A stretch of 64,000 bases of DNA from the NCBI GenBank assembly GCA_965229825.1, contig CBDDJQ010000011.1, forward strand, positions 460,487 through 524,486, read 5' to 3'. A program made the position numbers and the translations under genes. Positions 1,544 through 61,407 of the stretch are shown here, piece by piece. The first letter of the stretch is position 1, and the number at the start of each line of letters is the position of its first letter. This stretch comes from Vicinamibacterales bacterium. Lineage in GTDB: Bacteria; Acidobacteriota; Vicinamibacteria; Vicinamibacterales; UBA8438. The notes under the pieces were generated by a model that worked only from the letters and a program-made list of their open reading frames with translations, had not been told where the DNA came from and did no database searches.

Positions 1544-3034
1544 ATGACTCCAGCGACAAGGTGGGCGGCGGCGGTCGGGACAGCAATGTTCGTCATCGGG
1601 GTCGCGGCGGGGACGGGGCTGGCCCAGACCAGCCGTCTGGACCCGGACGGCAACGTCCGAGAGGACGCGTACATCCGGATTCCGCTGTCCGACGCGGATC
1701 AGCGCTACGCGTCGATCGACGGCGCGCGCATGAAGGGGCTCGTGCGCGAGGTCGCCGACATTTCCGTCGCCAACCGCGACGACCGGACGAAGTACTGGGG
1801 CCGGATAGCCGGCACCCGCGGCGAGGAGATGGCGCGCGAGTACGTCGAGGGGAAGTTTCGGGAGCTGGGGCTCGGTGACATCCGAAACCAGGAGTTCGAC
1901 CTGCCGACCCAGTGGTTCCCGGCCGGCTACGACGTCCGCGTCGAGGCGGGCGGCCATACCTACCGGTTCGACTCGGTGGTGCCGGCGCTGCGCTCGAACC
2001 CGACCGACGGCACGCTCGACCTCGAGGCGGTGTGGGTGGGCACCGGCTCCACCGCAGACTTCCACGGGCGGGACGTCGCCGGCAAGGCGGTCTTCATCCA
2101 CAGCATCCCCGCCCCCGGGTCGATGGGACACTCGGCCGGCGCGAGCTGGGAAGGGGCCATCCGGCGCGCGCAGGACCGGGGCGCCGCCGCCGTCGTCGTC
2201 ATCTACGGCATCTCGGACAACTTCACCATCTGGCAGGGCCTCGGCGGGGAGATCACCATTCCCGGCGCCTTCATGGGCTACCGGGACGGCAATATCGTCA
2301 AGGAGCTGATCGGCCGCGGCGAGGCGGTGCGGGTCGCGATGCGGGTCGACGTCGACTACCGGGACGGCCTGAAGACCTCCAGCGTCTTCGGGACGCTCCC
2401 GGGCACGACCGACGAGGACATCTACGTGCTCGCGCATCTCGACGGGTACTTCGAGGCGGCCCTCGACAACGCGTCCGGCATCTCGGTCATGCTGGCGCTG
2501 GCCGAGCACTTCGCGGCGCGGCCCGCGTCCGAGCGCCGGCGCAACCTCGTCTTCGTCGGCACCGCCGGCCATCACGTGGGGTCGCCAGGCTCGCGCTGGA
2601 TGCACGATCACCGCGAGACGGCGCTGGCCGACGCCGCGTTGATGATCAACTGCGAGCACGTCTCGGTGAAGCAGACCGTGTACTGGGGCCCCTCGATGCG
2701 GAAGACCGACATACCGTCTCCGCGCCGGTGGTGGGTGAACGGCAGCGACCGCCTGACGGACCTCGTCCTCGACGCGTACCGCACCTTTGGGGTGGCGGTC
2801 TGGGACCGCATGGAAGATCGGGCCGCCGGCGAGATGGGCAGCGTCGCGCGCGACCTGCCGTCGATCCAGATCATCCGGTCGCCCGAGATCAAGCACACCG
2901 ACCAGGACATTCCCGAGTGGGTGCCCGAGGCCGGCCTCGAGGCGGTGGCCCGCGCCTATGCCCGCATCATCGACGACGTGAACGAGCTCGACCGCACGGC
3001 CCTGCGGCCGGAGCCGACGACCGACGGTCAGTAG
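1544..3034 (+). CDS. Secreted M28-family metallopeptidase with PA domain
   Basis: RBS GAGGAGGGA before ATG 1544; signal peptide; GRIAGT.GE, AHLDG, ALDNASG, INCEH and HTDQD motifs; PA-like segment DVAGKAVFI. Confidence 0.8.
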   Translation: MTPATRWAAAVGTAMFVIGVAAGTGLAQTSRLDPDGNVREDAYIRIPLSDADQRYASIDGARMKGLVREVADISVANRDDRTKYWGRIAGTRGEEMAREYVEGKFRELGLGDIRNQEFDLPTQWFPAGYDVRVEAGGHTYRFDSVVPALRSNPTDGTLDLEAVWVGTGSTADFHGRDVAGKAVFIHSIPAPGSMGHSAGASWEGAIRRAQDRGAAAVVVIYGISDNFTIWQGLGGEITIPGAFMGYRDGNIVKELIGRGEAVRVAMRVDVDYRDGLKTSSVFGTLPGTTDEDIYVLAHLDGYFEAALDNASGISVMLALAEHFAARPASERRRNLVFVGTAGHHVGSPGSRWMHDHRETALADAALMINCEHVSVKQTVYWGPSMRKTDIPSPRRWWVNGSDRLTDLVLDAYRTFGVAVWDRMEDRAAGEMGSVARDLPSIQIIRSPEIKHTDQDIPEWVPEAGLEAVARAYARIIDDVNELDRTALRPEPTTDGQ

Positions 3035-3210
3035 GACGCTCCGGGACGATTCGAAGCTCGCGCAAGGAGCCCGTGGTGAAACCGCGGGGTTTTTCCCAGG
3101 GGTTCCCAGGGCTGCCAATGCCGCCGCGGATCGAGTTGAGAGATTGCGCCGGCGGAGGAATTCGCCGCCGCGGTCAGCGCGCTCATCTGGCCGAGTGGTA
3201 GTGGCATCAG

Positions 3211-4965
3211 ATGCTGACCAGGCTCGTCATCCGGAACTTCAAGCGCTTCGGCGAGGTCGAGATCGATCTCGGCAGTCCGGTGGTCTTCATCGGTCCCAAC
3301 AACTCGGGGAAGACCTCGGCCATGCAGGCGTTGGCGCTCTGGGACGTCGGTCTCAAGCGCTGGAACGAGAAGAGGGCCGGAAAGAGCACGCCGGAGAAGC
3401 GGCCCGGGGTGACCGTCAACCCGCGGGACCTCGTGGCGATTCCCATCCCCGACGCCAACCTGCTGTGGCGGGACCTGCACGTGCGGGACGTGCATCGCGT
3501 CGACGGCCGGCAACGCACCAGCAACGTCCGCATCGATCTCGTCGTCGAGGGCGTGACCCGCGGCCGGCGCTGGACGTGCGGGCTGGAGTTCGATTACGCG
3601 AACGAGGAGTCCTTCTACTGCCGGCCGCTTCGTCTGTCCGAGGACGGCACGGCGGGCCGCATGCCGGTGCCGGACGAGGCGGGAGACGCCCGGGTCGCCT
3701 TGCTGCCGCCGATGTCGGGGCTGGCCGCCACCGAGACGCGTCTCGATCAGGGCGCCGTCAACGTCCGCATCGGAGAGGGCCGCACGGCCGAGGTGCTGCG
3801 CAACCTCTGCTTCCGGATTCGCGAAGCGGAACCTTCACCCTGGAACGTGCTGGTCGACCACATCGGGAGCCTGTTCGGCGCGGAGCTGGACCCGCCGCGC
3901 TACGTTGCCGAGCGCGGCGAGATCGTGATGACCTACCGTGAACACGGCGCCAAGCTCGATCTGTCGTCATCCGGCCGGGGCCTGCAGCAGACGTTGCTCC
4001 TGCTGGCCTACATGTACGGGAATCCGGGCGCGGTGCTGCTTCTCGACGAGCCCGACGCGCACTTGGAGATTCTCCGCCAGCGCCAGATCTACCGACTGCT
4101 CACTGACGTGGCGCGCGAGACCGGCAGTCAGATCATCGCCGCCAGTCATTCCGAGGTGCTGCTGAACGAGGCGGCGGGCCGGGATCTGGTGGTGGCGTTC
4201 GTAGGCCGGCCCCATCGCATCGACGATCGCGGCAGCCAAGTCCTCAAAGCGCTGCGCGAGATCGGATTCGACCAGTACTACCAGGCGGAACAGACCGGTT
4301 GGGTGCTCTACCTGGAGGGGTCGACGGATTTGTCGATCCTCGTTGCCTTCGCCAAGCGACTGGGGCACGAACGCGCGCTCCGGGCTCTGGAGCGACCGTT
4401 CGTGCACTACGTGGGGAATCAGGCGCGGGCCGTCCAGAGCCACTACCACGGCCTGCGCGAAGCGCTTCCGACGCTCTGCGGGGTCGCCCTCTTCGATCGT
4501 CTCGGATCGGAGCAGCCCGACATCGCACCGGTCGAGTGTCTGATGTGGACGCGCCGGGAAATCGAGAACTACATCTGTACGCGGGCCGCGCTGGAAGCCT
4601 ACGCCACCGCGTCGGCGACGGACGCCGGTCCGGGGCCGCTGTTCACGGTGGCCGACGCCGACCGGCGCCTGCAGGCGATGCGCGAGTCCATCGACGAGAT
4701 AGAGTCGGCACTGAAGACGTTGGGCAAGGGGTCGCCCTGGGATGTCGATGTCAAGGCGAGCGACGAGTTTCTCGATCCGCTCTTCGAGTCGTACTTCAGA
4801 AAGCTCGGCCTGCCGAACCTGATGGCCAAGAAGAACTTCCACGAGCTGGCCCAACACGTGCCCGACAGCGAGATCGATCCCGAGATTCGCGAGAAGCTAG
4901 ATGCCATCGCGCGGGTCGCGGAGCGCGCGGCGCCCGCGGACGACGGCGAAACCGAATGGCCGTGA
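3211..4965 (+). CDS. ABC-type (AAA_15/AAA_21) ATPase fused to TOPRIM-like domain; OLD-family-like ATP-dependent nuclease
   Basis: IRNFKRF start, Walker A GPNNSGKT, signature SSSGRG, Walker B LLLDEPDAHL, H-loop ASHS; C-terminal LYLEGSTD...LFDR...RREIENY. Confidence 0.85.
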   Translation: MLTRLVIRNFKRFGEVEIDLGSPVVFIGPNNSGKTSAMQALALWDVGLKRWNEKRAGKSTPEKRPGVTVNPRDLVAIPIPDANLLWRDLHVRDVHRVDGRQRTSNVRIDLVVEGVTRGRRWTCGLEFDYANEESFYCRPLRLSEDGTAGRMPVPDEAGDARVALLPPMSGLAATETRLDQGAVNVRIGEGRTAEVLRNLCFRIREAEPSPWNVLVDHIGSLFGAELDPPRYVAERGEIVMTYREHGAKLDLSSSGRGLQQTLLLLAYMYGNPGAVLLLDEPDAHLEILRQRQIYRLLTDVARETGSQIIAASHSEVLLNEAAGRDLVVAFVGRPHRIDDRGSQVLKALREIGFDQYYQAEQTGWVLYLEGSTDLSILVAFAKRLGHERALRALERPFVHYVGNQARAVQSHYHGLREALPTLCGVALFDRLGSEQPDIAPVECLMWTRREIENYICTRAALEAYATASATDAGPGPLFTVADADRRLQAMRESIDEIESALKTLGKGSPWDVDVKASDEFLDPLFESYFRKLGLPNLMAKKNFHELAQHVPDSEIDPEIREKLDAIARVAERAAPADDGETEWP

Positions 4966-50730: not shown

Positions 50731-51300
50731 GTGGAGGTGGGTGTGAAGGGTGGCAGATGCGGTTTGTCGGTAGCGGGGATGCTCCTGGTCGCGGGGCTCG
50801 CGGCCGCGCAGCGCCCCGATTTTTCCGGGATGTGGACGCTCGACCGCGCGGCGAGCGATTTTACGGCGCCGGCGTTCAGCGGCGGCCGCGGCGGGGACGA
50901 CGTCGGCCGTCTGTTCATCACCCATGCCGCCAACGGCACGGTGGTCGTCGGCTCGGAGACCAACGGCGTCAAGGCTTGGTCCTATACGCCCGGACGCGAG
51001 CTCACCATTCCCGTCGGCCGCGACACCACGATGCAGGCCACGTCGCGGTGGGAGGGCGAGCGGCTGGTGGCGGAAGGGACGCAGGGCGACATGACGATGC
51101 ACGAGGTGATGTCGCTGAGTCCGGACGGCGGGACCCTGACCATCGAGGTGACCACCGGGACGCCGGCGGGGGAGACCCGCAACCGGCTGGTCTATCGGGC
51201 GAATGGCCCCGTCGGGGCGTGCGAGACCTGGGCGATGCCGTGCAAGGAGTTCCCGCAGGACGTGCCCTCGTCCGCGGCGCACGAGGTATCACCGCGATGA
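50731..51300 (+). CDS. Hypothetical secreted protein (start uncertain)
   Basis: Signal peptide then QRPDFSGMWTLD..AS; SLSPDG.TLTIE; stop overlaps the next ATG. Confidence 0.7.
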   Translation: MEVGVKGGRCGLSVAGMLLVAGLAAAQRPDFSGMWTLDRAASDFTAPAFSGGRGGDDVGRLFITHAANGTVVVGSETNGVKAWSYTPGRELTIPVGRDTTMQATSRWEGERLVAEGTQGDMTMHEVMSLSPDGGTLTIEVTTGTPAGETRNRLVYRANGPVGACETWAMPCKEFPQDVPSSAAHEVSPR

Positions 51301-52616
51301 CGAGATACGAGACACCGATCACGATCGCCCTGGCCGCGATCCTCTTGCAGGCCGCCGCGGCGGCCGGTGCGCAGGAAGGGGAGTGGCGCCAGTGGGCGGG
51401 GCGGAACCGCGATTTCACGGCCGACTCGACGGGCCTTGCCGAGAGCTGGCCGGCTTCGGGACCGCCCGAGATCTGGAGTCGGCCCCTGGGGGCCGGGCAT
51501 TCCTCCATCCTCGTTTCCGGAGGCCGGTTGTTCACCATGTACCGCGTCTCGCACGCCGACGGCGGCGGCGCGCCCTGGACGCCGCGCGAAGCGGTCGTCG
51601 CCCTCGACGCGGCGACCGGCGCGACGCTGTGGGAGTACGAGTACGCGTCCAAGAACCAGGACTTCGACCAGGGGGCGGGGCCGCACGCGACGCCGCTGCT
51701 GGCCGGCGGCCGCCTGTTCACCGTCGGCAGTAACAAGGAGCTGCACGTCTTCGAGCCCGAGACCGGCGAGCTGCTGTGGTCGAAGAACCTCATCACCGAC
51801 TTCGGCGCGCCGCCGTTGCTGATCCGCTCGATGATCAAGCCGGGGTCGGGGATGAGTCCGACTCCCTACCAGGACACCATCCTTCTGCAGGTCGGCGGAC
51901 CCGGCCAGTCGGTGATCGCGTTGCGGCAGCGTGACGGCGAGGTGGTCTGGAAGAGCGGCAGCTTCCTCGTATCGCATGCCGCGGTGGGGCTGATTCCCGT
52001 CGACGGCCGGACCCACGCGGTGGTATTCGCGGGTCAGGCGGTGGTCGGCATGGATCCCGACACCGGCGAGGTGCTCTGGGCCCACCCCCACGACGCCGGC
52101 AACGACTTCAACTTCCAGATTCCCCATTACGACCCCGAGCGCCGGGTACTGTTCTTCTCGTCCGGCTACATCGGCGGCAGCCAGGCGATTCGCCTCGTGC
52201 CCGACGGGGACATCGTGCACACCGAGGCGTTGTGGGCCGATCGCCTCCTGCGGTTCACCTTTCTCAACGTGCTGAAGATCGGCGGCTTCATCTACGGCAC
52301 GAGCGGCCAGGGCGCGACCGCGGTGCTGACCGCCACCCACATGGAAACGGGCGAGACCGCGTGGCGCGAGCGCGGCTTCAGCCGCGCGACCATGGTCTAC
52401 GGGGACGGGAAGGCGATCATCCTGGAAGAGGACGGCGACCTCTCGCTCGTCCGGCTGAGCCCGAACGGCCTTGAGCGCTTGGCCGGCACGCAACTGTTCG
52501 ACACACGTTCGTGGACGGTGCCGACCCTCGTGGGGACCACCCTCTATGCCCGCGACCGCGCCCGCATCGTCGCCCTCGACCTGGGAGCCCGCGGGGAGCG
52601 CGCGGGGGGTCGGTAG
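51297..52616 (+). CDS. PQQ-like (BamB) beta-propeller repeat protein
   Basis: W.QWAG.NR, P.EIWSRPLG.G.SS; repeated LDAATG..LW, E..TGE.LW, D.DTGEVLW tryptophan-docking motifs. Confidence 0.87.
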   Translation: MTRYETPITIALAAILLQAAAAAGAQEGEWRQWAGRNRDFTADSTGLAESWPASGPPEIWSRPLGAGHSSILVSGGRLFTMYRVSHADGGGAPWTPREAVVALDAATGATLWEYEYASKNQDFDQGAGPHATPLLAGGRLFTVGSNKELHVFEPETGELLWSKNLITDFGAPPLLIRSMIKPGSGMSPTPYQDTILLQVGGPGQSVIALRQRDGEVVWKSGSFLVSHAAVGLIPVDGRTHAVVFAGQAVVGMDPDTGEVLWAHPHDAGNDFNFQIPHYDPERRVLFFSSGYIGGSQAIRLVPDGDIVHTEALWADRLLRFTFLNVLKIGGFIYGTSGQGATAVLTATHMETGETAWRERGFSRATMVYGDGKAIILEEDGDLSLVRLSPNGLERLAGTQLFDTRSWTVPTLVGTTLYARDRARIVALDLGARGERAGGR

Positions 52617-52712
52617 GACGAACCCCTCAGCCCTCAGCCGAAGGACCAAACGCCGAGACCCATCGGCGTGGACGAGCCCGCATCCGGCGCCCGCCGGTCA
52701 GGGAATCCGGCG

Positions 52713-54377
52713 CTATTCGTCGTCCGACGCCTCGCTGTCCGCAATCGCCGGCGCCGTCCGTTCCGCAGGCAGACTCACGCGCCGTTGCAGCATGAAGTCC
52801 CGCTCGCCCTCGATCAGGGTAGCCAGCCGTGCGTTCAGCAGACCGGCCCGGTCATCGTCTCGCAGCCGGCCAATGCAGTCGGCCGGGAAGCCGTGTGTCG
52901 GCAGCAGCCTCCTCAGCGCGTCGTCGTCCAGCGCGGACAGCGCGCCCCACGCCTGTCCGACATGATCTTCGTCCACGAACAATCGGTTCGCCGGACTGGA
53001 AACCAGCTCGGGCGGGTCGGGGTTGGACCACACGTAACCCACCGCGTCGGTTCCCAGCAGGGACAGAAGCGGACCCGGATCCAGATCGGCGCCGCCTCGG
53101 AGCGACCGAGGACGAAGGGACACCAGGTACAGCAGGAATGCGCGTACGCGGGCGCTTCGCGCGTCGAAACGGTCGGGAAACGGCTGCGCCGGCATGTCCA
53201 GATCGACCACGTTGAACGTCTCGCTCTTCCCCTGTGCAAGGTTGCGGACTTCCTCCAAGGCGCGCTTGGCCTGCGCCGTGTTGACGCCGCCGAACCAGCC
53301 CGTGAACGACGTCACCCAGAACCAGCGCCTCAGCAGCTTGACTGTTCCTGCTGCCGGCTGCGGGCAGATGCGATGGAACTCGCCGAGCAGCACGAGTTGC
53401 AGTCCGTAAGGAAGCAGGCGGTCGGAAGTGACGCCGAGACCCTGGAGCATCTCTAGCGCCAGTCTGATGCCTTGCGTGGCGGCGTCGAACCCTTCCGGGA
53501 GTCTCTTGCGGACTTCCGGCTTGACCATGAGGTCCGCCCAGTCCTTGGCATAGATGTCCAGTTCGAGCGCCGCGAGCACCGACCTGAGAAGAAAGACGCG
53601 ATCGAGGTTTCCGAAGCCCTTCTTCTTCAGCTCGGCCTTGAACTCGCTGAGCATGCTGGCGAGATGGAACTCTCCCTCCTGGTAGGTCAGTGCGGAAACC
53701 AGCTCGTCCGCAGCCATCTTGCGTCCGGTGCGGTTCAGGCGAGCGAAGACCGTGACAGCGCTCTCCAGGTCCGCCTCGCGGATGTGAATAAGCGGGAGCT
53801 GATAGTCCCGAAAGGCGCTCGAGAGGCGGTCCGCCTCGTCGAGCCAGTGCTGGGCGCGACGCTCGTCGTCGACCTGGTCTTGTATCCGACGGCAGGCCTC
53901 GAAGAATCCCGCCGTGTTGAGCAGGCTGCGCACGGGAAAGTACCGTGGGTCCGAGTCCTTCAGCAGCTTGCGGTGGTCGATGAATGCCTGCTCTTCAAGG
54001 TCGTAGTACACGCGCCAGTCGATGTGGTCCACGATCGGGTCCATGTCGTCGGTCAGCCGTAGCGTCCCTGCAAGGGTCGAGACGCGTTGCTGGCCGTCGA
54101 GCAGGTACCCAACTGAGCCGTCCGGACTCGGACTGATTTCCAACGGGCCGATGCGCGGGGTGGACTGGATCCCCTTCTCCGTATCCCAGACGAGGATCGA
54201 GCCGATGGGAAAACCGCGCCGAACGCTGTCGAGCAGTGCGATCAGGTCAGGCTGATTCCACACGAAGGCACGCTGGAACCTCGGGACGCGAACCTTGCCG
54301 GCAGCGACGCGTTCCACGAGCTTGCCCAGAAAGACGACTTCCGGAACGACTTCGGTGTGCTTCTCGATGTCGGACAT
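52713..54377 (-). CDS. DUF262 (ParB/Srx-fold, GmrSD N-terminal) protein with apparently degenerate C-terminal HNH region
   Basis: VPRFQRAFVW, FPIGSILVW, LLDGQQRVSTL, VFARLNRTG; C-terminal SPANRLFV without a preceding (D/E)H motif. Confidence 0.9.
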   Translation of the reverse strand: MSDIEKHTEVVPEVVFLGKLVERVAAGKVRVPRFQRAFVWNQPDLIALLDSVRRGFPIGSILVWDTEKGIQSTPRIGPLEISPSPDGSVGYLLDGQQRVSTLAGTLRLTDDMDPIVDHIDWRVYYDLEEQAFIDHRKLLKDSDPRYFPVRSLLNTAGFFEACRRIQDQVDDERRAQHWLDEADRLSSAFRDYQLPLIHIREADLESAVTVFARLNRTGRKMAADELVSALTYQEGEFHLASMLSEFKAELKKKGFGNLDRVFLLRSVLAALELDIYAKDWADLMVKPEVRKRLPEGFDAATQGIRLALEMLQGLGVTSDRLLPYGLQLVLLGEFHRICPQPAAGTVKLLRRWFWVTSFTGWFGGVNTAQAKRALEEVRNLAQGKSETFNVVDLDMPAQPFPDRFDARSARVRAFLLYLVSLRPRSLRGGADLDPGPLLSLLGTDAVGYVWSNPDPPELVSSPANRLFVDEDHVGQAWGALSALDDDALRRLLPTHGFPADCIGRLRDDDRAGLLNARLATLIEGERDFMLQRRVSLPAERTAPAIADSEASDDE

Positions 54378-54379
54378 GC

Positions 54380-55360
54380 CTACAGTTCCTGGCGGATCAA
54401 CTCGATGCCGTGCTCGATGTCGCCTCGTCCGCGAGCCAGCAGTTCGTTCCTGACCTCCCGCACGTGCCACACGCTCCAGCATTCGTGCACGTTCCGTCCG
54501 AATCCCTTGGCGAGAGTCTCCCGGTCGTCGTCAGGCAGGTCGGCGAACAGGTCCTCCTCGATCGGCGTGGGTGTCTCCGGGAAGCCACGCTTCATGTCGA
54601 AGAAGTCCTTCTGTTCATTGCTGAGTCTCTCCCTTGCGTCGACTATTCTTGCGCGTTCGGTCCCTGCGTGTTCGGCGTGGACGTTGGGTCTCGCGCGGAG
54701 GAGGACTCGGGGCAGATAGTTCTCCGCTTCCCGCTTGGCGAGCACCCAGCAGGGAAGTCCATGCCTGTCGCAGGTCTTGAGGAGGCGTCGGGCGTCTCCG
54801 CTCTCCGAGTCTCCCGGACCCTTCCGGTCGCTGTCGATGACGGCGACGAGCCGCGGACGATACGTCACTGCGCCAGTCCGCTTCTCGACTTCCTGCGGCA
54901 TCTGGCCTTTGCCGCCCACGCTGTCGAATCGGATCGGTTCACCCTCGCGTCGCCACACGCCATGAAGGGGCTTGTCGAGCTCTGTCACGATCCGTGCGAC
55001 GAACGCGCCGTCGCTGCCCCTGTTCTCGACGAGGATCACGAGCGGCTCGTCGGCCAGGCGGCTTGCCTCCTCGGGCGCGAGCTCATCCGGCGCGGCCGGA
55101 AGCGCAGTCACTCGCAAGCGCCGGGTGTGCGGGGTCAGCGTCCAAGCGCCGCGCCCAGCCGACTTGACGAGCAGCTCGCGCAGTCGCTCGCCCTGCCTGC
55201 CGGGGTCGCTGACCCACGTCGTGGCCTCGATGGCGTCGGCATCCGGCGTATCGGTCAGGTCCCAGACGTGCCAGCCGTCGTCGATCCTGCGCACGATGCG
55301 GTCAAGCCACTGGTGCGCGTCCGGATCATTCGCCACGCTGATGTCGATCGTGATGCGCAC
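54380..55360 (-). CDS. Uncharacterised protein with OLD-type TOPRIM-like domain
   Basis: LVILVENRGSDGAF, VGGKG, VAVIDSD (DxD), VLAKREAENYLP. Confidence 0.7.
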   Translation of the reverse strand: MRITIDISVANDPDAHQWLDRIVRRIDDGWHVWDLTDTPDADAIEATTWVSDPGRQGERLRELLVKSAGRGAWTLTPHTRRLRVTALPAAPDELAPEEASRLADEPLVILVENRGSDGAFVARIVTELDKPLHGVWRREGEPIRFDSVGGKGQMPQEVEKRTGAVTYRPRLVAVIDSDRKGPGDSESGDARRLLKTCDRHGLPCWVLAKREAENYLPRVLLRARPNVHAEHAGTERARIVDARERLSNEQKDFFDMKRGFPETPTPIEEDLFADLPDDDRETLAKGFGRNVHECWSVWHVREVRNELLARGRGDIEHGIELIRQEL

Positions 55361-55366
55361 GGCCGT

Positions 55367-56605
55367 CTATCCCTGGACCTTGCCCCTGGCGGCCCGCCTG
55401 ATGGCCAGGATCTCCTCGTAGTCCTCGATGAAGACGCCGTCCGGCCAGGTTTCCATCTCGCCGTTGTCCCGTATTCCGATCTTCTCCAGCAAAGATCCGT
55501 GCCCCGGTTCCGTGTGGACCCAATAGACCAACACGTGCTCGGCCGGCAACCGTCCCTCCGCGATCCAGCGTCGCGCGCGGAGGAGAATCATCTCCGAATG
55601 TGTCTCGACGACCAGAGGTCGTGCGGGTCCGGCGAGGTTCTTGATCAGGAGCTCGGCGATGTTCGCGTGGGCCGCCGGATGGAGCTCGGCCTCGGGATGT
55701 TCGATGACGTCGACGCCGGGACCCGCTTGGCGCGCCGACAGCGCCATGACAACGACCGGCAGCACATGGGAGAGTCCACGGCCCGCCTGCTCGATGCGCA
55801 CGTAGGTGTTCCTGAACGGCGTTCCTGTCCCCAAGTCGAAGTACCTGCCCTGCGCAACGAAGTCGATTGGCACCCCGAAGGTCTTGCGGTACCAGTCCTG
55901 AACCGATTCGAGCAACGTCTCATCCGCGGCCAAAGCCAGCGGCGAATCTCGTCCGTCGGGTCCAATGCTCGCGGGTGCGCGTTCCGACGCGTGAAGCGCC
56001 GACGCGCGGAGATGCCGCGGGCATCGCAGGTGACGAACACCCGCGGCCCAGGCCCTCAGGGCGTCGGCCTGCGGGCCTATCCAATCAGCGAGCGCGTGGG
56101 GTTGCGCGGGTAGCAACCCCCGCCAGATCAAGGGACGAAGGTCCGGTGAATCCCCCGGGACCGAAATGCGGTAGTCGGCGGCTTTGTTGAATCCCTGCCT
56201 TTCCGCAACGATCTCCCTGTCGCCGCTCTGCAGCCGCCAGTCGGAGATCTGCCGCTCGGACGTTCGTCCCGGCGCCATGACGTTCGTGACGGTGGCGGAG
56301 AGCGACGATTCGCCGCTCTCGCCGGCCAGGGTGATGGAGAGTTGCAGTCGACCGTGCACGGGGCGCCCCGTCACGAGATCCTCGAAGGTCTCTCCGTGCC
56401 GGAGCCCGCCGGACTCCAGCGGAAGCGGTTCCCGCACGACGCCGTCCGGGGGAGCCAGCCCGCCCGCCAGCAACTGGATCGCCTGGGCGAGCGCGGTTTT
56501 CCCGGAGTTGTTGGGCCCCACCAGGATGGTCAGCGGAGCCAGCTCCACCTCGGCCCGCTGTGCGTAGCCCTTGTACCGTTCGAGACTGAAATGTCGGAGC
56601 TCCAC
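55367..56605 (-). CDS. ABC-type ATPase (AAA_15/AAA_21) with DUF3696-like C-terminus
   Basis: LAPLTILVGPNNSGKT, QAGRGLSHVLPVV, VIEHPEAELHP, ETHSE, C-terminal DNGEMETWPDGVF. Confidence 0.9.
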   Translation of the reverse strand: MELRHFSLERYKGYAQRAEVELAPLTILVGPNNSGKTALAQAIQLLAGGLAPPDGVVREPLPLESGGLRHGETFEDLVTGRPVHGRLQLSITLAGESGESSLSATVTNVMAPGRTSERQISDWRLQSGDREIVAERQGFNKAADYRISVPGDSPDLRPLIWRGLLPAQPHALADWIGPQADALRAWAAGVRHLRCPRHLRASALHASERAPASIGPDGRDSPLALAADETLLESVQDWYRKTFGVPIDFVAQGRYFDLGTGTPFRNTYVRIEQAGRGLSHVLPVVVMALSARQAGPGVDVIEHPEAELHPAAHANIAELLIKNLAGPARPLVVETHSEMILLRARRWIAEGRLPAEHVLVYWVHTEPGHGSLLEKIGIRDNGEMETWPDGVFIEDYEEILAIRRAARGKVQG

Positions 56606-57064
56606 GCCGACTACATGATAACCACTGCCGGTCACGGAATCCTGAGCTTGGTCGTCGGGTGACGCCGCCTCGGGTGCGCCCGCGGCGGCGCTTTCGCTCT
56701 GACCGGGTCGGCCAACTCGCGGGTCGCCGCTCCGAGTGCCCCCAAGCCGATCGTGTGGGATCGAGCAGGAGATCGCGCTGGTGTCGTGCTGCTCCAGGGG
56801 CAGCACGAAGCCGGGCGCTTTCGCTCCGATCTGCGGTCCCAGCGATGCGACATGGGGGTTCTGTCAACCGGATGGGGCGAGGGAAGTCCTGCTCGGAGTC
56901 GTCCTGCTCGACTGGCGGAGTACTTGCGGCGTGCGCTTCCTGATGCCGTTCGACGGCACTTGGTTCTACGGCGACGCGGCGCGGAGGCTCGCGCCGGCGG
57001 TCGGCCGGCGCACCGAGTCGCCGAGGCGGCCGGCGGAGCGCCCGGTTCGGTATAGACTTGCTGT

Positions 57065-57250
57065 ATGGTGCCGAGTTCCCGCAGCCTGCTCGACCCGGTC
57101 ACCGAGGCCTACAAGAAGGACATCGACCGGACCCTGCTGCGCGAGAACCTCGAGCTGAGCGTCGAGGGCCGGCTGCGCCAGCTGATGGAGCTTCAGCGGC
57201 TCGCCGAAGAGCTGCAAAGGGCCGGGCGGGCCGCGCGGCGCGCACCGTGA
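57065..57250 (+). CDS. Small protein coupled to a nucleotidyltransferase (putative antitoxin partner)
   Basis: DPVTEAYKKDIDRTLLRENLELSVEGRL; GTGA overlap with the next gene. Confidence 0.7.
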   Translation: MVPSSRSLLDPVTEAYKKDIDRTLLRENLELSVEGRLRQLMELQRLAEELQRAGRAARRAP

Positions 57251-57723
57251 CCGACTTCGCCGCCCTCCTCCGCACGCTCGGCGACCACGGCGTCGCGTAC
57301 ATCCTCGTCGGCGGGGCGGCGGCCACCGTGCACGGATCGGCGAGACTGACGCTGGACGTGGACGTCGTCTACCGGCGCACACCCGACAACCTGGAACGGC
57401 TCGCTACCGCGCTGGCTCCCTACGAGCCCCGCCTGCGCGGCGCCCCGCCCGGGCTTCCCTTCCGGTGGGATGCGGACACTCTCGGCCGCGGGCTCAACTT
57501 CACGCTGGCCACTTCCCTCGGCCCTATCGATCTGCTGGGAGAGATCGTCGGCGCGGGCTCGTACGAGCAGCTCTTCCCTGACACCACCGAGGTGACGGCG
57601 TTCGGCGTCAGTTGCCGCTGCGTGACCCTCGATGGCCTGATTCACCTGAAGCGGTCGGCCGGACGCGTCCGGGACCTCGAGGCGGTCGCCGAGCTGGAAG
57701 CTCTGCGCGAAGAGCGAGGCTGA
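57247..57723 (+). CDS. Nucleotidyltransferase (AbiEii/DUF6036-like)
   Basis: YILVGGAAATVHGSARLTLDVDV (GG...T.D.D), IDLL, L.GLI.LK..AGR.RDL. Confidence 0.82.
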   Translation: MTDFAALLRTLGDHGVAYILVGGAAATVHGSARLTLDVDVVYRRTPDNLERLATALAPYEPRLRGAPPGLPFRWDADTLGRGLNFTLATSLGPIDLLGEIVGAGSYEQLFPDTTEVTAFGVSCRCVTLDGLIHLKRSAGRVRDLEAVAELEALREERG

Positions 57724-57764
57724 ACCGGCCGGCACCGACTTCTTCCAGCTCCGGCGGTTCGTCC

Positions 57765-57840
57765 ACCCCCGCGGTGACGCCGGTCGAAGCGGTCCACTTC
57801 ACGGAGCTGCGGACGCGCATAGACGCCCTGCGCACGGGAG
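57765..57840 (+). pseudogene. Fragment of a repeated surface-protein domain
   Basis: TPAVTPVEAVHFTELRTRIDALR, recalled from memory as a C-terminal repeat of acidobacterial surface proteins; no complete gene surrounds it. Confidence 0.4.
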
Positions 57841-57983
57841 GCGAAGGCCGCAGCGTCGGTGAGACTGGGTCGATGGCAGCGAGGGTTTCGCCAAGGCCGG
57901 CGGGCGACGATTGGCCAAGCATCTGCGCTGCGGAACCGCGCAGATGCTTGGCCGTCGGTTGGGGCGAGGAGCCGGCTGTCAGG

Positions 57984-59126
57984 CTACCGGTCTGCCCGCT
58001 GCCGGTCGAGCAGGTCGATCTCGAAGGTGAAGGACAGCGGCACCGACACCGGGTCGTAGCAAAGCCGGTCGTCGCACGCCTGGTAGTCGAGCGTCCCCGA
58101 CAACGTCACCGCGTCGGTCTCGGCGAGTGCCTCCTCCACGCCCGGGGCACCGGACACCACCGCCTCCTGCAGCAGGGTGAACGGGGCCTGATAGACGGGC
58201 ACCCGCTCGTCGAGCGGTTCGAAGTGGTAGATCTCCGACGCCGGGAACACCACCGGCTCGAACCGGGTGTGCGGCAGCGGGGCCAGGGACAGCCCGAGCA
58301 CGCGATAGCCGAGCTGCTCGGCCCCCGGGGCATAGAGGTGCATGCCCGGGTTCGGCTCGATCTCGACGGCGACGGAGAAGCGGGTGCCCACGGTGATGGT
58401 CGGATCGCTGGCGTACGCGGTGAACTTCAGGTGCGCGGTCGATCCTTCGATGGCCGCGATGGGCGACAATCCTTCGCCGAGCCGGAGCATCACGTTCGCG
58501 GTCGTGTTCCGTTCCCGATAGAACTCCTCGAAGAACCGCGCCGTCACGCGTCCCTCGCGATCGAGCATGAAGGTCCCCGGGAACGGCGTGCCGACGATGT
58601 TCGAGCCCGCGCCGAACACCGACACGTACTTCGCGACATCCGCCACGACGTCCGGGTCGTCGCCGTTGGGGCCCTGGGCCTCGATGGCGACGGTGTTCAG
58701 GATGCCGAAGTCGGTGATGACCGCGGAGTCGTCATCGGCGAGGAGCGGGAAGCTGATGCCGCGCCGGCGGCTGAAGTCGGCGAGCACTTCCTGCGAGTCG
58801 TAGCTGATGGCCGCGACCCCGAGGCCTCTCCCCCGCAGTTCTTCGATACGGTCTTGCAGCTCCACGAGCTGCGCTTTGCAGTAGGGTCACCAGTCGGCGG
58901 AGCGGTGGAACAGCAGGATCGCGCCGTTGGGTCCCAGAATCGACTCCCGTGTCCGGGTGCGTCCGTTCTGGTCGGTCAGGGCGAAATCGGGGACCAGGTC
59001 TCCGATCTGCGGTCCCAGCGATGCAACGTTCACCGGTGTTCTCTCCTGCATGGCCTGGGATGGGACGCCGAGCGACAGGGCGCAGAGCGCCGCCGCAAGA
59101 GCGACTTGACGCAGTTTGACTTTCAT
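57984..59126 (-). CDS. Selenocysteine-containing peroxiredoxin-like (AhpC/TSA) protein fused to a DsbD N-terminal-like domain; UGA at 58887-58889
   Basis: ORFs 58887-59159 and 57984-58865 are in one frame: GPQIGDLVPDFALTDQNG...FHRSADW-UGA-PYCKAQLVELQ gives UxxC. Hairpin GCAGCTC-GTG-GAGCTGC 14 nt downstream; C-terminal GMHLYAP...YQACDDRLCY.P. Confidence 0.88.
58856..58872 (-). promoter_or_regulatory. Putative bacterial SECIS hairpin
   Basis: Perfect 7-bp stem with a G-containing loop, starting 14 nt 3' of the in-frame UGA. Confidence 0.55.
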
Positions 59127-59868: not shown

Positions 59869-61407
59869 TCAGGGCTGCTGCTCGCGCGCAGCCAGGACGT
59901 CCCGGAAGTTGGGTCCCAGATCCTCGCCCAGGGAGGTGTCGGCGCCGAGCTGCTCGAGGACCTCGCCCGTCTCCTGGTGGGTGTAGAACGATCCGGATCG
60001 GTACTCGCCTTCGGCCGCGATCATCCAGGGTGTCTGGCCGCGGACGTTGACGACGTCTATCTCGGCCCCCTGCTCGACCAGGTACGGCACCAGCAGCGTG
60101 CCGCCGAGATAGACGGCGCCGTGCAGCGTGGTCTGCTCGTGGACGTTGGTGGCGTTGACGTCGAGACCGAGCTCGAGCAGGTACTCCACCGCCGCGAGCG
60201 CCGATTGCTGCAGCGGCAGGTTGTCGCCGAACCACCGGACGCCGTACTTGTCCGCGCCCTCCACGTAGTCGCCCCCCGCCGCCACCATCAGCGCGGTGGT
60301 CTCGTCGTCCGCCCGCAGCATCGGGTCGGCGCCGCCTGCCACGAGGATCCTCATGCTCTCGAGGTCGTTGTAGCTCGCGGCCAGGAAGAACGGGGTGGCT
60401 CCGATGTTGGAGGGCGACAGCCCGTGGCCCTGCGTGATGCGCCGCGAGACGAACGGCAGGCGCTTCGTCATCCGGGGGTCGGGGTCGGCGCCGTGCTCGA
60501 GGAGAGCCGCGACCACCTCCGGCATCTTCCGCTGCACGGCGGCGTGCAGGGCAGTGCGCCCCGCGCCGTCGTGGTCGGGGTCCGCGCCCCGCGCCAGCAG
60601 GAAGCGCGCCAGCTCGGAATGGCCGCTGTCGATGGCCACGAGCAGGGCGGCGGCGTCGGTGCCGGCCACGAAGCGCGAGCGGGCGTTGGTGTTGCCGCCG
60701 ATGCCGTCGGGCGCCGACTCGTCGACGTCGGCCCCGGCCGACAGCAGCAGGTCGGCTGCCTCGAGATTGCCCTGCTGGGCCGCGAACAGCAGCGGGGTGA
60801 ACCGGTTCTTCGACCGGGCCGAGACGACGGCGCCGGTCTCCAGCAGCAGGCGCGCCACCGGGGTGTGGTTCTCGGCCACCGCCAGCATCAGCGCGGTCTG
60901 GCCGAGGGTGGTTTCCGTGGCGTCCGGGTCCGCTCCTGCCGCGAGCAGGCTCCGGACCACGTCGAGGCTGCCGACCCGCGCGGCCGTCATCAGCGGCGTC
61001 TCGCCGTTGCCGCGCGCCGCGTTCGCATCCGCCCCGGCCGCGAGCAGGGTGCCGACGATGGAAAGGCTGCCGTTCAGGCTGGCCAGCGCCAGCGGGGTGA
61101 CCCCGTGATCGTCCGCGGCGTCGACGTTGGCGCCGGCCGCGAGCAGGTCGGTCGCCATGGCGTGCGAGTCGCGGTGCGCCGCCCAGTGGAGGGCGGTGGT
61201 GCCGTCGCCGTAAGCCGCGTCGGGGTCCGCGCCTCCCTCGAGCAGGGCCCGGACCGCCGGGTGGTCGCTGCTTCTCACCGCCGCGACCAGATCCGGCGGA
61301 TCGAAGGCCGGCTGGGCGTGGGACGTGATGGAGAGCGCGGTCGCGAGGACGCCGGTTGCGATTGCGGTCACCGTCGATGCCTGTACCTGCATGGTTCTCG
61401 GTCTCAT
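59869..61407 (-). CDS. Secreted ankyrin-repeat protein (paralogue of 14904-16379)
   Basis: Repeated GTTALHWAA, GVTPLALA, GETPLMTAA, GQTALM.A, FTPLLFAA, GATPF.LAA, TTALMVAAG. Confidence 0.92.
   Translation of the reverse strand: MRPRTMQVQASTVTAIATGVLATALSITSHAQPAFDPPDLVAAVRSSDHPAVRALLEGGADPDAAYGDGTTALHWAAHRDSHAMATDLLAAGANVDAADDHGVTPLALASLNGSLSIVGTLLAAGADANAARGNGETPLMTAARVGSLDVVRSLLAAGADPDATETTLGQTALMLAVAENHTPVARLLLETGAVVSARSKNRFTPLLFAAQQGNLEAADLLLSAGADVDESAPDGIGGNTNARSRFVAGTDAAALLVAIDSGHSELARFLLARGADPDHDGAGRTALHAAVQRKMPEVVAALLEHGADPDPRMTKRLPFVSRRITQGHGLSPSNIGATPFFLAASYNDLESMRILVAGGADPMLRADDETTALMVAAGGDYVEGADKYGVRWFGDNLPLQQSALAAVEYLLELGLDVNATNVHEQTTLHGAVYLGGTLLVPYLVEQGAEIDVVNVRGQTPWMIAAEGEYRSGSFYTHQETGEVLEQLGADTSLGEDLGPNFRDVLAAREQQP

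Follow-up and report, generated by a model that had tools for sequence, protein, structure and literature searches.

What kind of system, if any, is formed by three closely packed genes on the minus strand of a Vicinamibacterales genome, and is it one that has so far gone undescribed? The genes, here called A, B and C, occupy positions 52713-56605 of a 64,000-nucleotide stretch (contig CBDDJQ010000011.1, positions 460,487 to 524,486 of the forward strand; hereafter the window) and encode an ATPase, a Toprim protein and a DUF262 protein. A preliminary description, drawn from the sequence, had put them forward as an undescribed hybrid defence system in which a nuclease-dead DUF262 sensor and the ATPase gate a Toprim effector. 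Here we show that the cassette is a real, conserved and mobile system, and that it is a member of an already catalogued candidate family, PDC-M55. It is very probably anti-phage. We favour, at a probability of about one half, the reading that PDC-M55 is a Menshen-related defence system in which C would be the sensor, A the transducer and B the Toprim effector, with DNA as the favoured substrate.

Membership of the PDC-M55 family

Gene A (55367-56605, minus strand) starts with GTG and encodes a 412-residue ABC-type (AAA_15/AAA_21) ATPase of the NsnB or PDC-M55A kind; gene B (54380-55360, minus strand) also starts with GTG and encodes a predicted Toprim nuclease of 326 residues; and gene C (52713-54377, minus strand) starts with ATG and encodes a GmrSD-like DUF262 protein of 554 residues. 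The stop codon of A (TAG, ending at 55367) is separated by the six nucleotides ACGGCC from the GTG of B at 55360, and that of B (TAG, ending at 54380) by the two nucleotides GC from the ATG of C at 54377; the minus-strand reading frames and the junction sequences thus bear out the co-oriented arrangement with 6- and 2-nucleotide (nt) spacers that had been reported. A start of A at the GTG of 56605 agrees both with the near-full-length match to PDC-M55A and with the aligned N-termini of 21 homologues.

The three proteins were compared with the family models of PADLOC-DB v2.0.0, and also with Pfam (down to an expect value, E, of ≤10) and NCBIfam. Protein A matched PDC-M55A at E 1.5e-71 (residues 1-406 on model positions 1-413 of 421), B matched PDC-M55B at E 7e-39 (residues 1-294 on 1-280 of 315), which was its sole PADLOC family match, and C matched PDC-M55C at E 5.2e-129 (residues 1-547 on 1-552 of 554); no PADLOC family did better for any of the three. 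The genes are also adjacent, with gaps of 6 and 2 nt, an arrangement that is only presumed to be part of the PADLOC rule. At the level tested no difference from PDC-M55 was found, and the same trio recurs in distant plasmid copies. The claim of an undescribed system does not survive this comparison, since PADLOC-DB v2.0.0 already holds models that match all three proteins and Toprim-fold effectors have been described for the Menshen protein NsnC (Li et al., 2025; PMC12065111). The PADLOC check that had been proposed therefore speaks against novelty as regards PDC-M55, whereas Menshen itself is matched only in part (NsnB partially, NsnA at 3.9e-7 and NsnC not at all). Neither a described Menshen subtype nor a described PARIS subtype was matched in full; the family that is matched is a catalogued candidate.

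PDC-M55 is one of 145 phage defence candidates (PDCs) that Payne et al. state to be untested, the PDCs having been obtained from genes that lie within BREX, DISARM or type I restriction-modification systems and then added to PADLOC (Payne et al., 2024; 10.1101/2024.01.29.577857). It is known only as a set of hidden Markov models from this guilt-by-embedding screen. The identification is in itself ordinary, as standard defence-finding software already flags the cassette as PDC-M55. The family is nonetheless large and spread over many phyla and plasmids, and it links three studied systems, namely GmrSD/BrxU, Menshen and OLD/PARIS.

The size of the family is apparent from B, which has at least 542 relatives in a word-indexed search and whose representative clusters number 881 at E ≤1e-3, 351 at E ≤1e-10 and 56 at E ≤1e-30; on none of these clusters was a Pfam domain found. 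When one genome per species was scanned and A, B and C were located by tblastn, 40 loci were obtained, and in all 40 the genes stand in the order A-B-C on the same strand. The loci come from Vicinamibacterales and other Acidobacteriota, Binatia, Spirochaetia, Rhodothermales, Gamma- and Alphaproteobacteria, Longimicrobiales, Latescibacterota, Chloroflexota, Myxococcota, Schekmanbacteria and a cyanobacterium. Among the 31 loci with three whole frames, the gap between A and B runs from -17 to +8 nt and that between B and C from 0 to 7 nt, except for 67 nt in L029 and 53 nt in L032, which may reflect the choice of start codon. The neighbourhood analysis that had been called for thus found the three-gene linkage kept at every locus, and the fixed order of the trio is more than chance.

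Leclercia adecarboxylata and Paracoccus yeei have distant trios, the former on a conjugative IncFII plasmid and the latter on a mobilizable one; in these copies B is 27.6-27.8% identical, stops and starts overlap, and an integrase or recombinase gene adjoins. All six of these plasmid proteins have PDC-M55A, B or C as their best match, and the two ATPases align with NsnB over positions 5-334 and 2-342 of 345. No homologue of B was present in any phage record searched. A match to PDC-M55B was found in 8 of 61 related genomes (the window's own included), in 6 of 21 other genomes of the genus and in none of 14 control genomes.

In the window and in its closest relatives, loci L001, L002 and L017, the cassette is flanked by a PQQ/BamB-like beta-propeller gene on one side and an AhpC/DsbD_N gene on the other, and five genomes of the same genus without a B match were compared at this site. 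It is empty in G021 and G003; in G001 it holds only a nucleotidyltransferase (NTase) pair, to which we return below, and in G014 only A (79% identical, residues 1-407); in G002 there remain a stub of B (residues 290-326) and a full C, with the NTase pair on the other side. The interval between the two flanking genes, ~51300-58865 in the window, was seen together with L050-L054 as a hotspot of gain and loss within one genus. Its intact, empty and decayed alleles provide a natural series in which gain, cost and loss could be followed. The GC content falls to 0.625-0.64 across 53-55 kilobases (kb), as against 0.69-0.71 in the flanks of a window of ~70% GC. The presence of the cassette in 8 of 61 relatives, the empty and decayed sites, this dip in GC, and the plasmid copies beside an integrase or recombinase together indicate accessory and mobile behaviour.

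Decay falls mainly on B, which is interrupted in 8 of the 40 loci, as against truncation of A in one and splitting of C in two. Three of the interruptions are insertions of 1.3-2.9 kb in unrelated loci: one with an IS4-type transposase (DDE_Tnp_1) at 6882-8151 of L023, one with an IS66 transposase at 5488-7279 of L038, and one with no Pfam match at 3116-6001 of L037. Because of the insertion sequences (IS) in L023 and L038, and because B is split more often than A or C, we read this pattern as a probable cost of carrying the effector.

Properties of the three proteins

Protein A matches AAA_15 (E 7.9e-16) and AAA_21 (1.5e-14) in Pfam. It had been called a DUF3696 ABC ATPase, and the call stands in so far as the PADLOC model of NsnB is matched at 2.2e-33 (residues 226-392), whereas Pfam DUF3696 itself gives only E 0.015 (15.9 bits, below its 22-bit cut-off). 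HEC-03B is matched at 1.7e-23 (residues 271-406 on 316-448 of 458). The PADLOC models of AriA, GajA and Old cover the Walker A region only (AriA residues 1-47 or 25-48), and a profile of A searched against the PDB found SMC heads and an OLD ATPase, likewise in the N-terminal Walker A region only. In an alignment of 21 sequences the invariant residues are G30, N32, G35 and K36 of GPNNSGKT, E302, H303, P304, E307, L308, H309 and P310 of VIEHPEAELHP, E334-S337 of ETHS and, from WPDGVF onwards, W387, P388, V391, F392, E394, Y396 and E398. This last stretch belongs to a C-terminal DUF3696-like tail (residues ~354-392, WPDGVF..Y.E..AIRR; 55430-55546, minus strand) that lies inside both the NsnB and the HEC-03B matches. 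Walker B is altered, with an invariant E302-H303 instead of DE, and the signature, likewise invariant, reads GxG (G275-R-G277) instead of SGG; the deviations given by Li et al. for NsnB are DE to EN and SGG to GxG (PMC12065111). On these sequence grounds A is classed as an NsnB/DUF3696-type ABC ATPase.

Protein B had no match in Pfam at E ≤10, in NCBIfam or in a sequence-profile search of the PDB at E ≤10. An AlphaFold2 model built on a 30-sequence alignment reached a predicted local distance difference test (pLDDT) of 90.4 and a predicted template modelling score of 0.89. The Foldseek search that had been suggested for this gene placed OLD C-terminal regions first among PDB entries, but the top match, 6nk8_B, came only to E 1.2e-3, and there was nothing at E ≤1e-3; the wider, exhaustive VIA-align search matched the fold of residues 103-326 to OLD C-terminal regions and AriB. 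These residues comprise the OLD-type Toprim and helical region, the predicted nuclease effector (54380-55054 with the stop codon, minus strand). Toprim domains are defined by an invariant Glu, a Gly after beta2, a DxD motif and a four-stranded alpha/beta core (PMC6755086), to which E112, G149/G150, D176-S-D178 and the fold matches of B correspond. Across 30 sequences V111, E112 and D117 of VE..SD, D176 and S177 of DSD, and K209, R210, E211, E213, N214 and Y215 around REAENY are invariant, D178 is kept in at least 90%, and the GG motif is G149 and G150; the plasmid copies have REIENY and RSIENY at the REAENY position. The invariant D117 stands five residues after the Glu, and R210..E213-N-Y215 ~35 residues after the DxD, spacings that would place them at the positions of the metal-B ligands of class 2 OLD, E404 and T506/E508. 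The fold match to OLD and AriB and the invariant Glu, Gly and DxD motifs uphold the earlier call of a stand-alone Toprim protein, which we take further, from the model, to an OLD-type protein and predicted nuclease. In a 4611-residue protein, P0247, 15 separate stretches match residues 160-191 of B, around the DxD; either a repeat structure or a low-complexity artefact may be behind this.

Residues 1-102 of B (55055-55360, minus strand) form a confident small alpha/beta domain (block pLDDT 73-95) with an invariant GWH.W motif, the residues conserved throughout being G29, W30, H31, W33 and W49. No sequence relative of this domain was found outside the family in Pfam, in a PDB profile search or in an Atlas feature search (scores <0.9). 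When two copies of A were modelled with these residues, three runs scored 0.00, 0.68 and 0.00 against a mark of 0.32, which gives no verdict either way on binding between A and B.

In Pfam, C matches GmrSD_N (E 2.5e-21) and nothing else, and NCBIfam adds nothing; among PADLOC families its N-terminal stretch matches HEC-05 (BrxU-like) at 2.8e-21, and NsnA is matched at 3.9e-7. The motifs FQR..W, DGQQR and FARLN are invariant in the family alignment, which together with the GmrSD_N match confirms that the DUF262 motifs are intact, and so are A463, N464 and R465 of SPANR. All motifs listed in the preliminary description for the three proteins were indeed recovered, most of them without variation across alignments of 21-30 homologues. 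The ParB-like DUF262 domain takes up residues 18-230 (53688-54326, minus strand), and the helical middle and C-terminal region residues 231-554 (52713-53687 with the stop codon, minus strand). The structural model of C (pLDDT 84.1) contains the helical middle region. It matches BrxU at E 9.4e-12 in Foldseek; a sequence profile matches BrxU (7p9k_A) at 6.8e-11 over residues 20-104, in the DUF262 part only. As a whole, the layout of C can be superposed on BrxU as far as residue 530, and ~170 residues beyond the helical middle align there with the C-terminal portions of BrxU and SspE.

The tail of C had been described as a degenerate HNH domain without its catalytic His motif. GmrSD_C gave no match to C in Pfam even at E ≤10, and when the C family was compared by hhalign with 16 genuine GmrSD_C domains taken from the same order, no match in the tail was found (probability 1.4%). 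Three of these reference domains are from the window's own genome, G000, which has three bona fide GmrSD_C genes (C13:929182-929592, C11:810375-810782 and C13:1258567-1259013; L061, L071 and L074), so that enzymes of the classical GmrSD type exist there beside the cassette. In the reference set E65, H66, N97, L98 and N106 are invariant (E-H, N-L, N), and C has no equivalent pair. Since the profile is not matched and the E-H pair is missing, the tail lacks the DUF1524 catalytic motif, as had been noticed. The other half of the description, descent from HNH, received no support from sequence: it is only the overall superposition of the model, with a helix-strand-strand-helix pattern around SPANR, that suggests descent of the tail from DUF1524. 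An Atlas feature search with residues 385-554 gave scores <0.9; one cluster with GmrSD_C in 11% of its members and another with HNH_4 in 16% are leads only.

Twelve residues of the tail are invariant (F404, D405, R407, S408, A463, N464, R465, H495, G496, F497, E525 and R526), and the protein ends in an invariant acidic peptide, ADSxxSDDE (residues 546-554; 52716-52742 of the window), that is predicted to be disordered and may serve in docking or as a mimic of DNA. The Paracoccus plasmid copy keeps SSPANR and the acidic end; the Leclercia homologue is matched by PDC-M55C only up to position 365 of 554, and its tail has diverged.

A possible mechanism and its alternatives

Menshen is reportedly due to Millman et al. 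in 2022. As described by Li et al., it consists of NsnA, a ParB-DUF262 protein with a helical ParBDB; NsnB, an ABC ATPase with a DUF3696 tail; and NsnC, in which an N-terminal inactive PIN-like domain (inPIN) is joined to one of 15 effector families, including Toprim-fold DUF4276 and RloB. The 1997 loci of that study were retrieved as NsnA, then NsnB, then a third gene, and according to its text there is no association of Menshen with DUF1524 (Li et al., 2025; PMC12065111). A preprint from the Kranzusch laboratory groups a tested Menshen operon under Toprim/OLD nucleases (10.1101/2025.07.10.664194). Our cassette is like Menshen in having the same three roles, in the ParB-DUF262 motifs of C, in the match of A to NsnB with a shared altered Walker B and GxG signature, and in a two-domain B whose C-terminal Toprim-fold nuclease domain is of a class reported for NsnC. 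It differs in its order, which is ATPase-effector-DUF262 in the window and in all 40 loci instead of nsnA-nsnB-nsnC; in C, which has 554 residues with an extra BrxU-like C-terminal region and scores so low with the NsnA model; and in B, whose Toprim domain is OLD-type with a helical domain and matches neither Pfam DUF4276 nor the NsnC model. Because the order is different and two Menshen features were not established, we call the cassette Menshen-like and not a member of Menshen.

The other known systems share smaller parts. GmrSD, BrxU and SspE resemble C in the N-terminal DUF262 domain with its QR, DGQQR and FxxxN motifs and in overall layout, but C has no recognisable DUF1524 His-Me motif and travels with A and B. 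Membership of stand-alone GmrSD was rejected, as C lacks this motif and is always accompanied by both partners. OLD and the Gabija protein GajA resemble the cassette in the C-terminal fold and Toprim motifs of B residues 103-326 and in the OLD-ABC-type ATPase A; in all intact loci of our family, however, ATPase and Toprim are separate polypeptides (in the window a stop codon and 6 nt lie between them), B has an N-terminal domain of its own, and a DUF262 protein is encoded by a third gene. PARIS consists of two genes with no DUF262 partner, and although the fold of B matches AriB, B has no match to Pfam DUF4435 at E ≤10 and the AriA models reach only the first 47 residues of A; membership of PARIS was rejected on account of this restriction to residues 1-47 or 25-48. 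HEC-03, an ABC ATPase with a PIN protein that was validated by Payne et al. (2024; 10.1101/2024.01.29.577857), likewise pairs its ATPase with a separate nuclease, and the C-terminal third of A, tail included, matches HEC-03B, but HEC-03 is a two-gene system whose effector is a PIN protein and in which DUF262 is lacking.

The features computed directly are the structure of the genes, their family membership, the folds of B and C, linkage, mobility and decay, and from them we infer every functional step of the mechanism that follows. C, with its intact ParB-type DUF262 nucleoside triphosphatase (NTPase) site and helical DNA-binding middle, would sense by binding incoming, possibly modified DNA. 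A would act as transducer, holding B, probably through the N-terminal domain of B, and coupling the signal from C to its ATP cycle. B would then execute the response: as a two-metal Toprim nuclease of the OLD type, it would cut nucleic acid once licensed or released. Nicking or cleavage of DNA is the favoured activity, because the best structural match of B is a DNA-cutting OLD nuclease and because C is in a DNA-sensing family. The gating of a Toprim effector by sensor and ATPase, as the preliminary description had it, agrees with the model that Li et al. (2025) proposed for Menshen. Li et al. further state that the communication from DUF262 sensor to ABC ATPase was unpredictable for them, and PDC-M55 could show how it works.

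Several observations weigh against this sensor-transducer-effector reading. The tail of C is not detectably DUF1524, so that the notion of a dead nuclease comes from a whole-chain superposition with a root-mean-square deviation of 13.7 Å, and the invariant H495 and other polar residues of the tail could form a different active site. A PIN-like nature of the N-terminal domain of B is only a possibility. No paper of the literature searched uses the term PDC-M55, and the account by Payne et al. calls the 145 PDCs untested. In five of the eight loci with a split B the cause is a single frameshift in a metagenome-assembled genome, which may be an assembly error. The window itself is not a defence island, and the flanks of other cassettes consist mostly of housekeeping genes. 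In a survey of 19 other loci (137 open reading frames, L035 being left out), defence-type neighbours occurred in five (L008, L009, L013, L014 and L020), comprising type I restriction-modification subunits, AbiEi/HEPN_AbiV, AAA_21 with DUF4276 and a further AAA_21; PIN or Fic genes occurred in L012 and L018 and transposases in L021 and L029, and the remaining loci had none of these. As the flanking housekeeping genes are mostly unrelated, the cassette has been inserted at many sites.

It is possible that the cassette works by abortive infection in the manner of PARIS, with A and B as a loaded trap from which C or a phage protein releases B to cut host tRNA or other RNA and so stop translation. 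AriB is a two-metal Toprim tRNA nuclease (PMC12409363), RNA targets are those favoured by Li et al. for Menshen effectors (PMC12065111), and the IS insertions in B suggest self-toxicity; yet C as partner comes from a DNA-sensing family, and neither DUF4435 in B nor an AriA match beyond the first 47 residues of A was found, so that we regard this as rather unlikely, if a serious rival. A toxic B is also the premise of a selfish addiction module, in which A (and C) would restrain B and post-segregational killing would take place with no sensing of phage. Such a module would account for a cassette carried by conjugative and mobilizable plasmids beside an integrase or recombinase, sharing a hotspot with a toxin-antitoxin-like NTase pair and often disrupted in its effector gene. 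Three components, one of them a 554-residue NTPase/DNA-binding protein, nevertheless exceed the needs of addiction; validated defence systems (Menshen, PARIS and GmrSD/BrxU) have matching domains, the PDCs were chosen because they lie within defence systems (10.1101/2024.01.29.577857), and remnants with A alone or C alone persist without B. We consider addiction improbable.

Two further explanations change the part played by C or the purpose of the whole. C might still be an active second nuclease by way of other residues (for example H495, D405, N464 and E525), the cassette then being a GmrSD enzyme with an ATPase-Toprim module added. The tail is indeed as conserved as the rest of C, with its twelve invariant residues from F404 to R526, and the overall layout of C follows BrxU through residue 530; set against this are the failure to match GmrSD_C by Pfam or hhalign, the missing counterpart of the E-H pair and the loss of likeness after position 365 in Leclercia, which leave an active C very improbable. 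Nor do we give much credence to a housekeeping module for DNA repair or segregation, built from a ParB-like protein, an SMC/RecF-like ATPase and a RecR-like Toprim protein. Its attractions are the matches of A to SMC heads and an OLD ATPase, confined to the N-terminal Walker A region, the ParB fold of C and the presence of recQ near the cassette in the window, but a gene set found in only 8 of 61 relatives, with empty sites in two complete congeners, decayed and IS-interrupted copies and spread across phyla and plasmids, hardly behaves as housekeeping, and the idea can almost be dismissed.

The favoured reading of a Menshen-related sensor, transducer and effector allows a more speculative extension. 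PDC-M55 could be an evolutionary bridge from single-chain type IV enzymes (GmrSD/BrxU) to Menshen, in which C lost its His-Me nuclease and became a sensor of (modified) DNA, cutting was handed to an ATPase-gated OLD-type Toprim protein, and the acidic ADSxxSDDE peptide signals to the ATPase. We advance this tentatively, and would sooner expect it to fail than to hold. If true, the peptide would be the missing link from sensor to ATPase, the step that is still unknown for Menshen.

Surroundings of the cassette

Upstream of A, an intergenic region of 56606-57064 separates the cassette from the divergent NTase pair and is the presumed promoter region, its part from ~56937 on belonging to the inserted NTase module. 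A consensus scan found no sigma-70-like promoter in 52300-57300 and no terminator for the operon, a result that is uninformative at 70% GC, and the window has no tRNA gene. Metatranscriptome contigs of 93-99% likeness, from four runs in two studies, cover parts of C (all four runs), the 5' part of A (three runs) and only scraps of B; they are not counted as evidence of expression because they come from relatives, may reflect DNA carry-over and cannot show a single transcript.

The NTase module (56937-57827, plus strand) consists of a 61-residue open reading frame (57065-57250) and a 158-residue minimal nucleotidyltransferase (57247-57723) that overlap in a GTGA stop/start, the latter with weak matches to DUF2204 and AbiEii. 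L001, L002 and L017, although otherwise syntenic, do not have it, and it is found at 93% identity in two congeners, alone in G001 and on the other side of the cassette in G002, with fragments in G014. The toxin-antitoxin-like pair noted beforehand thus does adjoin the cassette, but as a separate insertion: it is an independent small mobile module outside the ATPase-Toprim-DUF262 system. A duplicated piece from the 3' part of the AhpC gene (residues 256-293) lies beside it in G001.

Large ankyrin-repeat proteins are unusual for free-living bacteria and are associated with host-associated lifestyles. One, recognised by its repeat sequence, is encoded near the cassette at 59869-61407 of the window (minus strand), and another lies at 723-2594 of L001 (Pfam Ank_2, 2.6e-64). 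In L009 a second ATPase-Toprim pair (AAA_21 with DUF4276; 2236-4052) stands directly upstream of the PDC-M55 cassette, with a methyltransferase gene adjoining.

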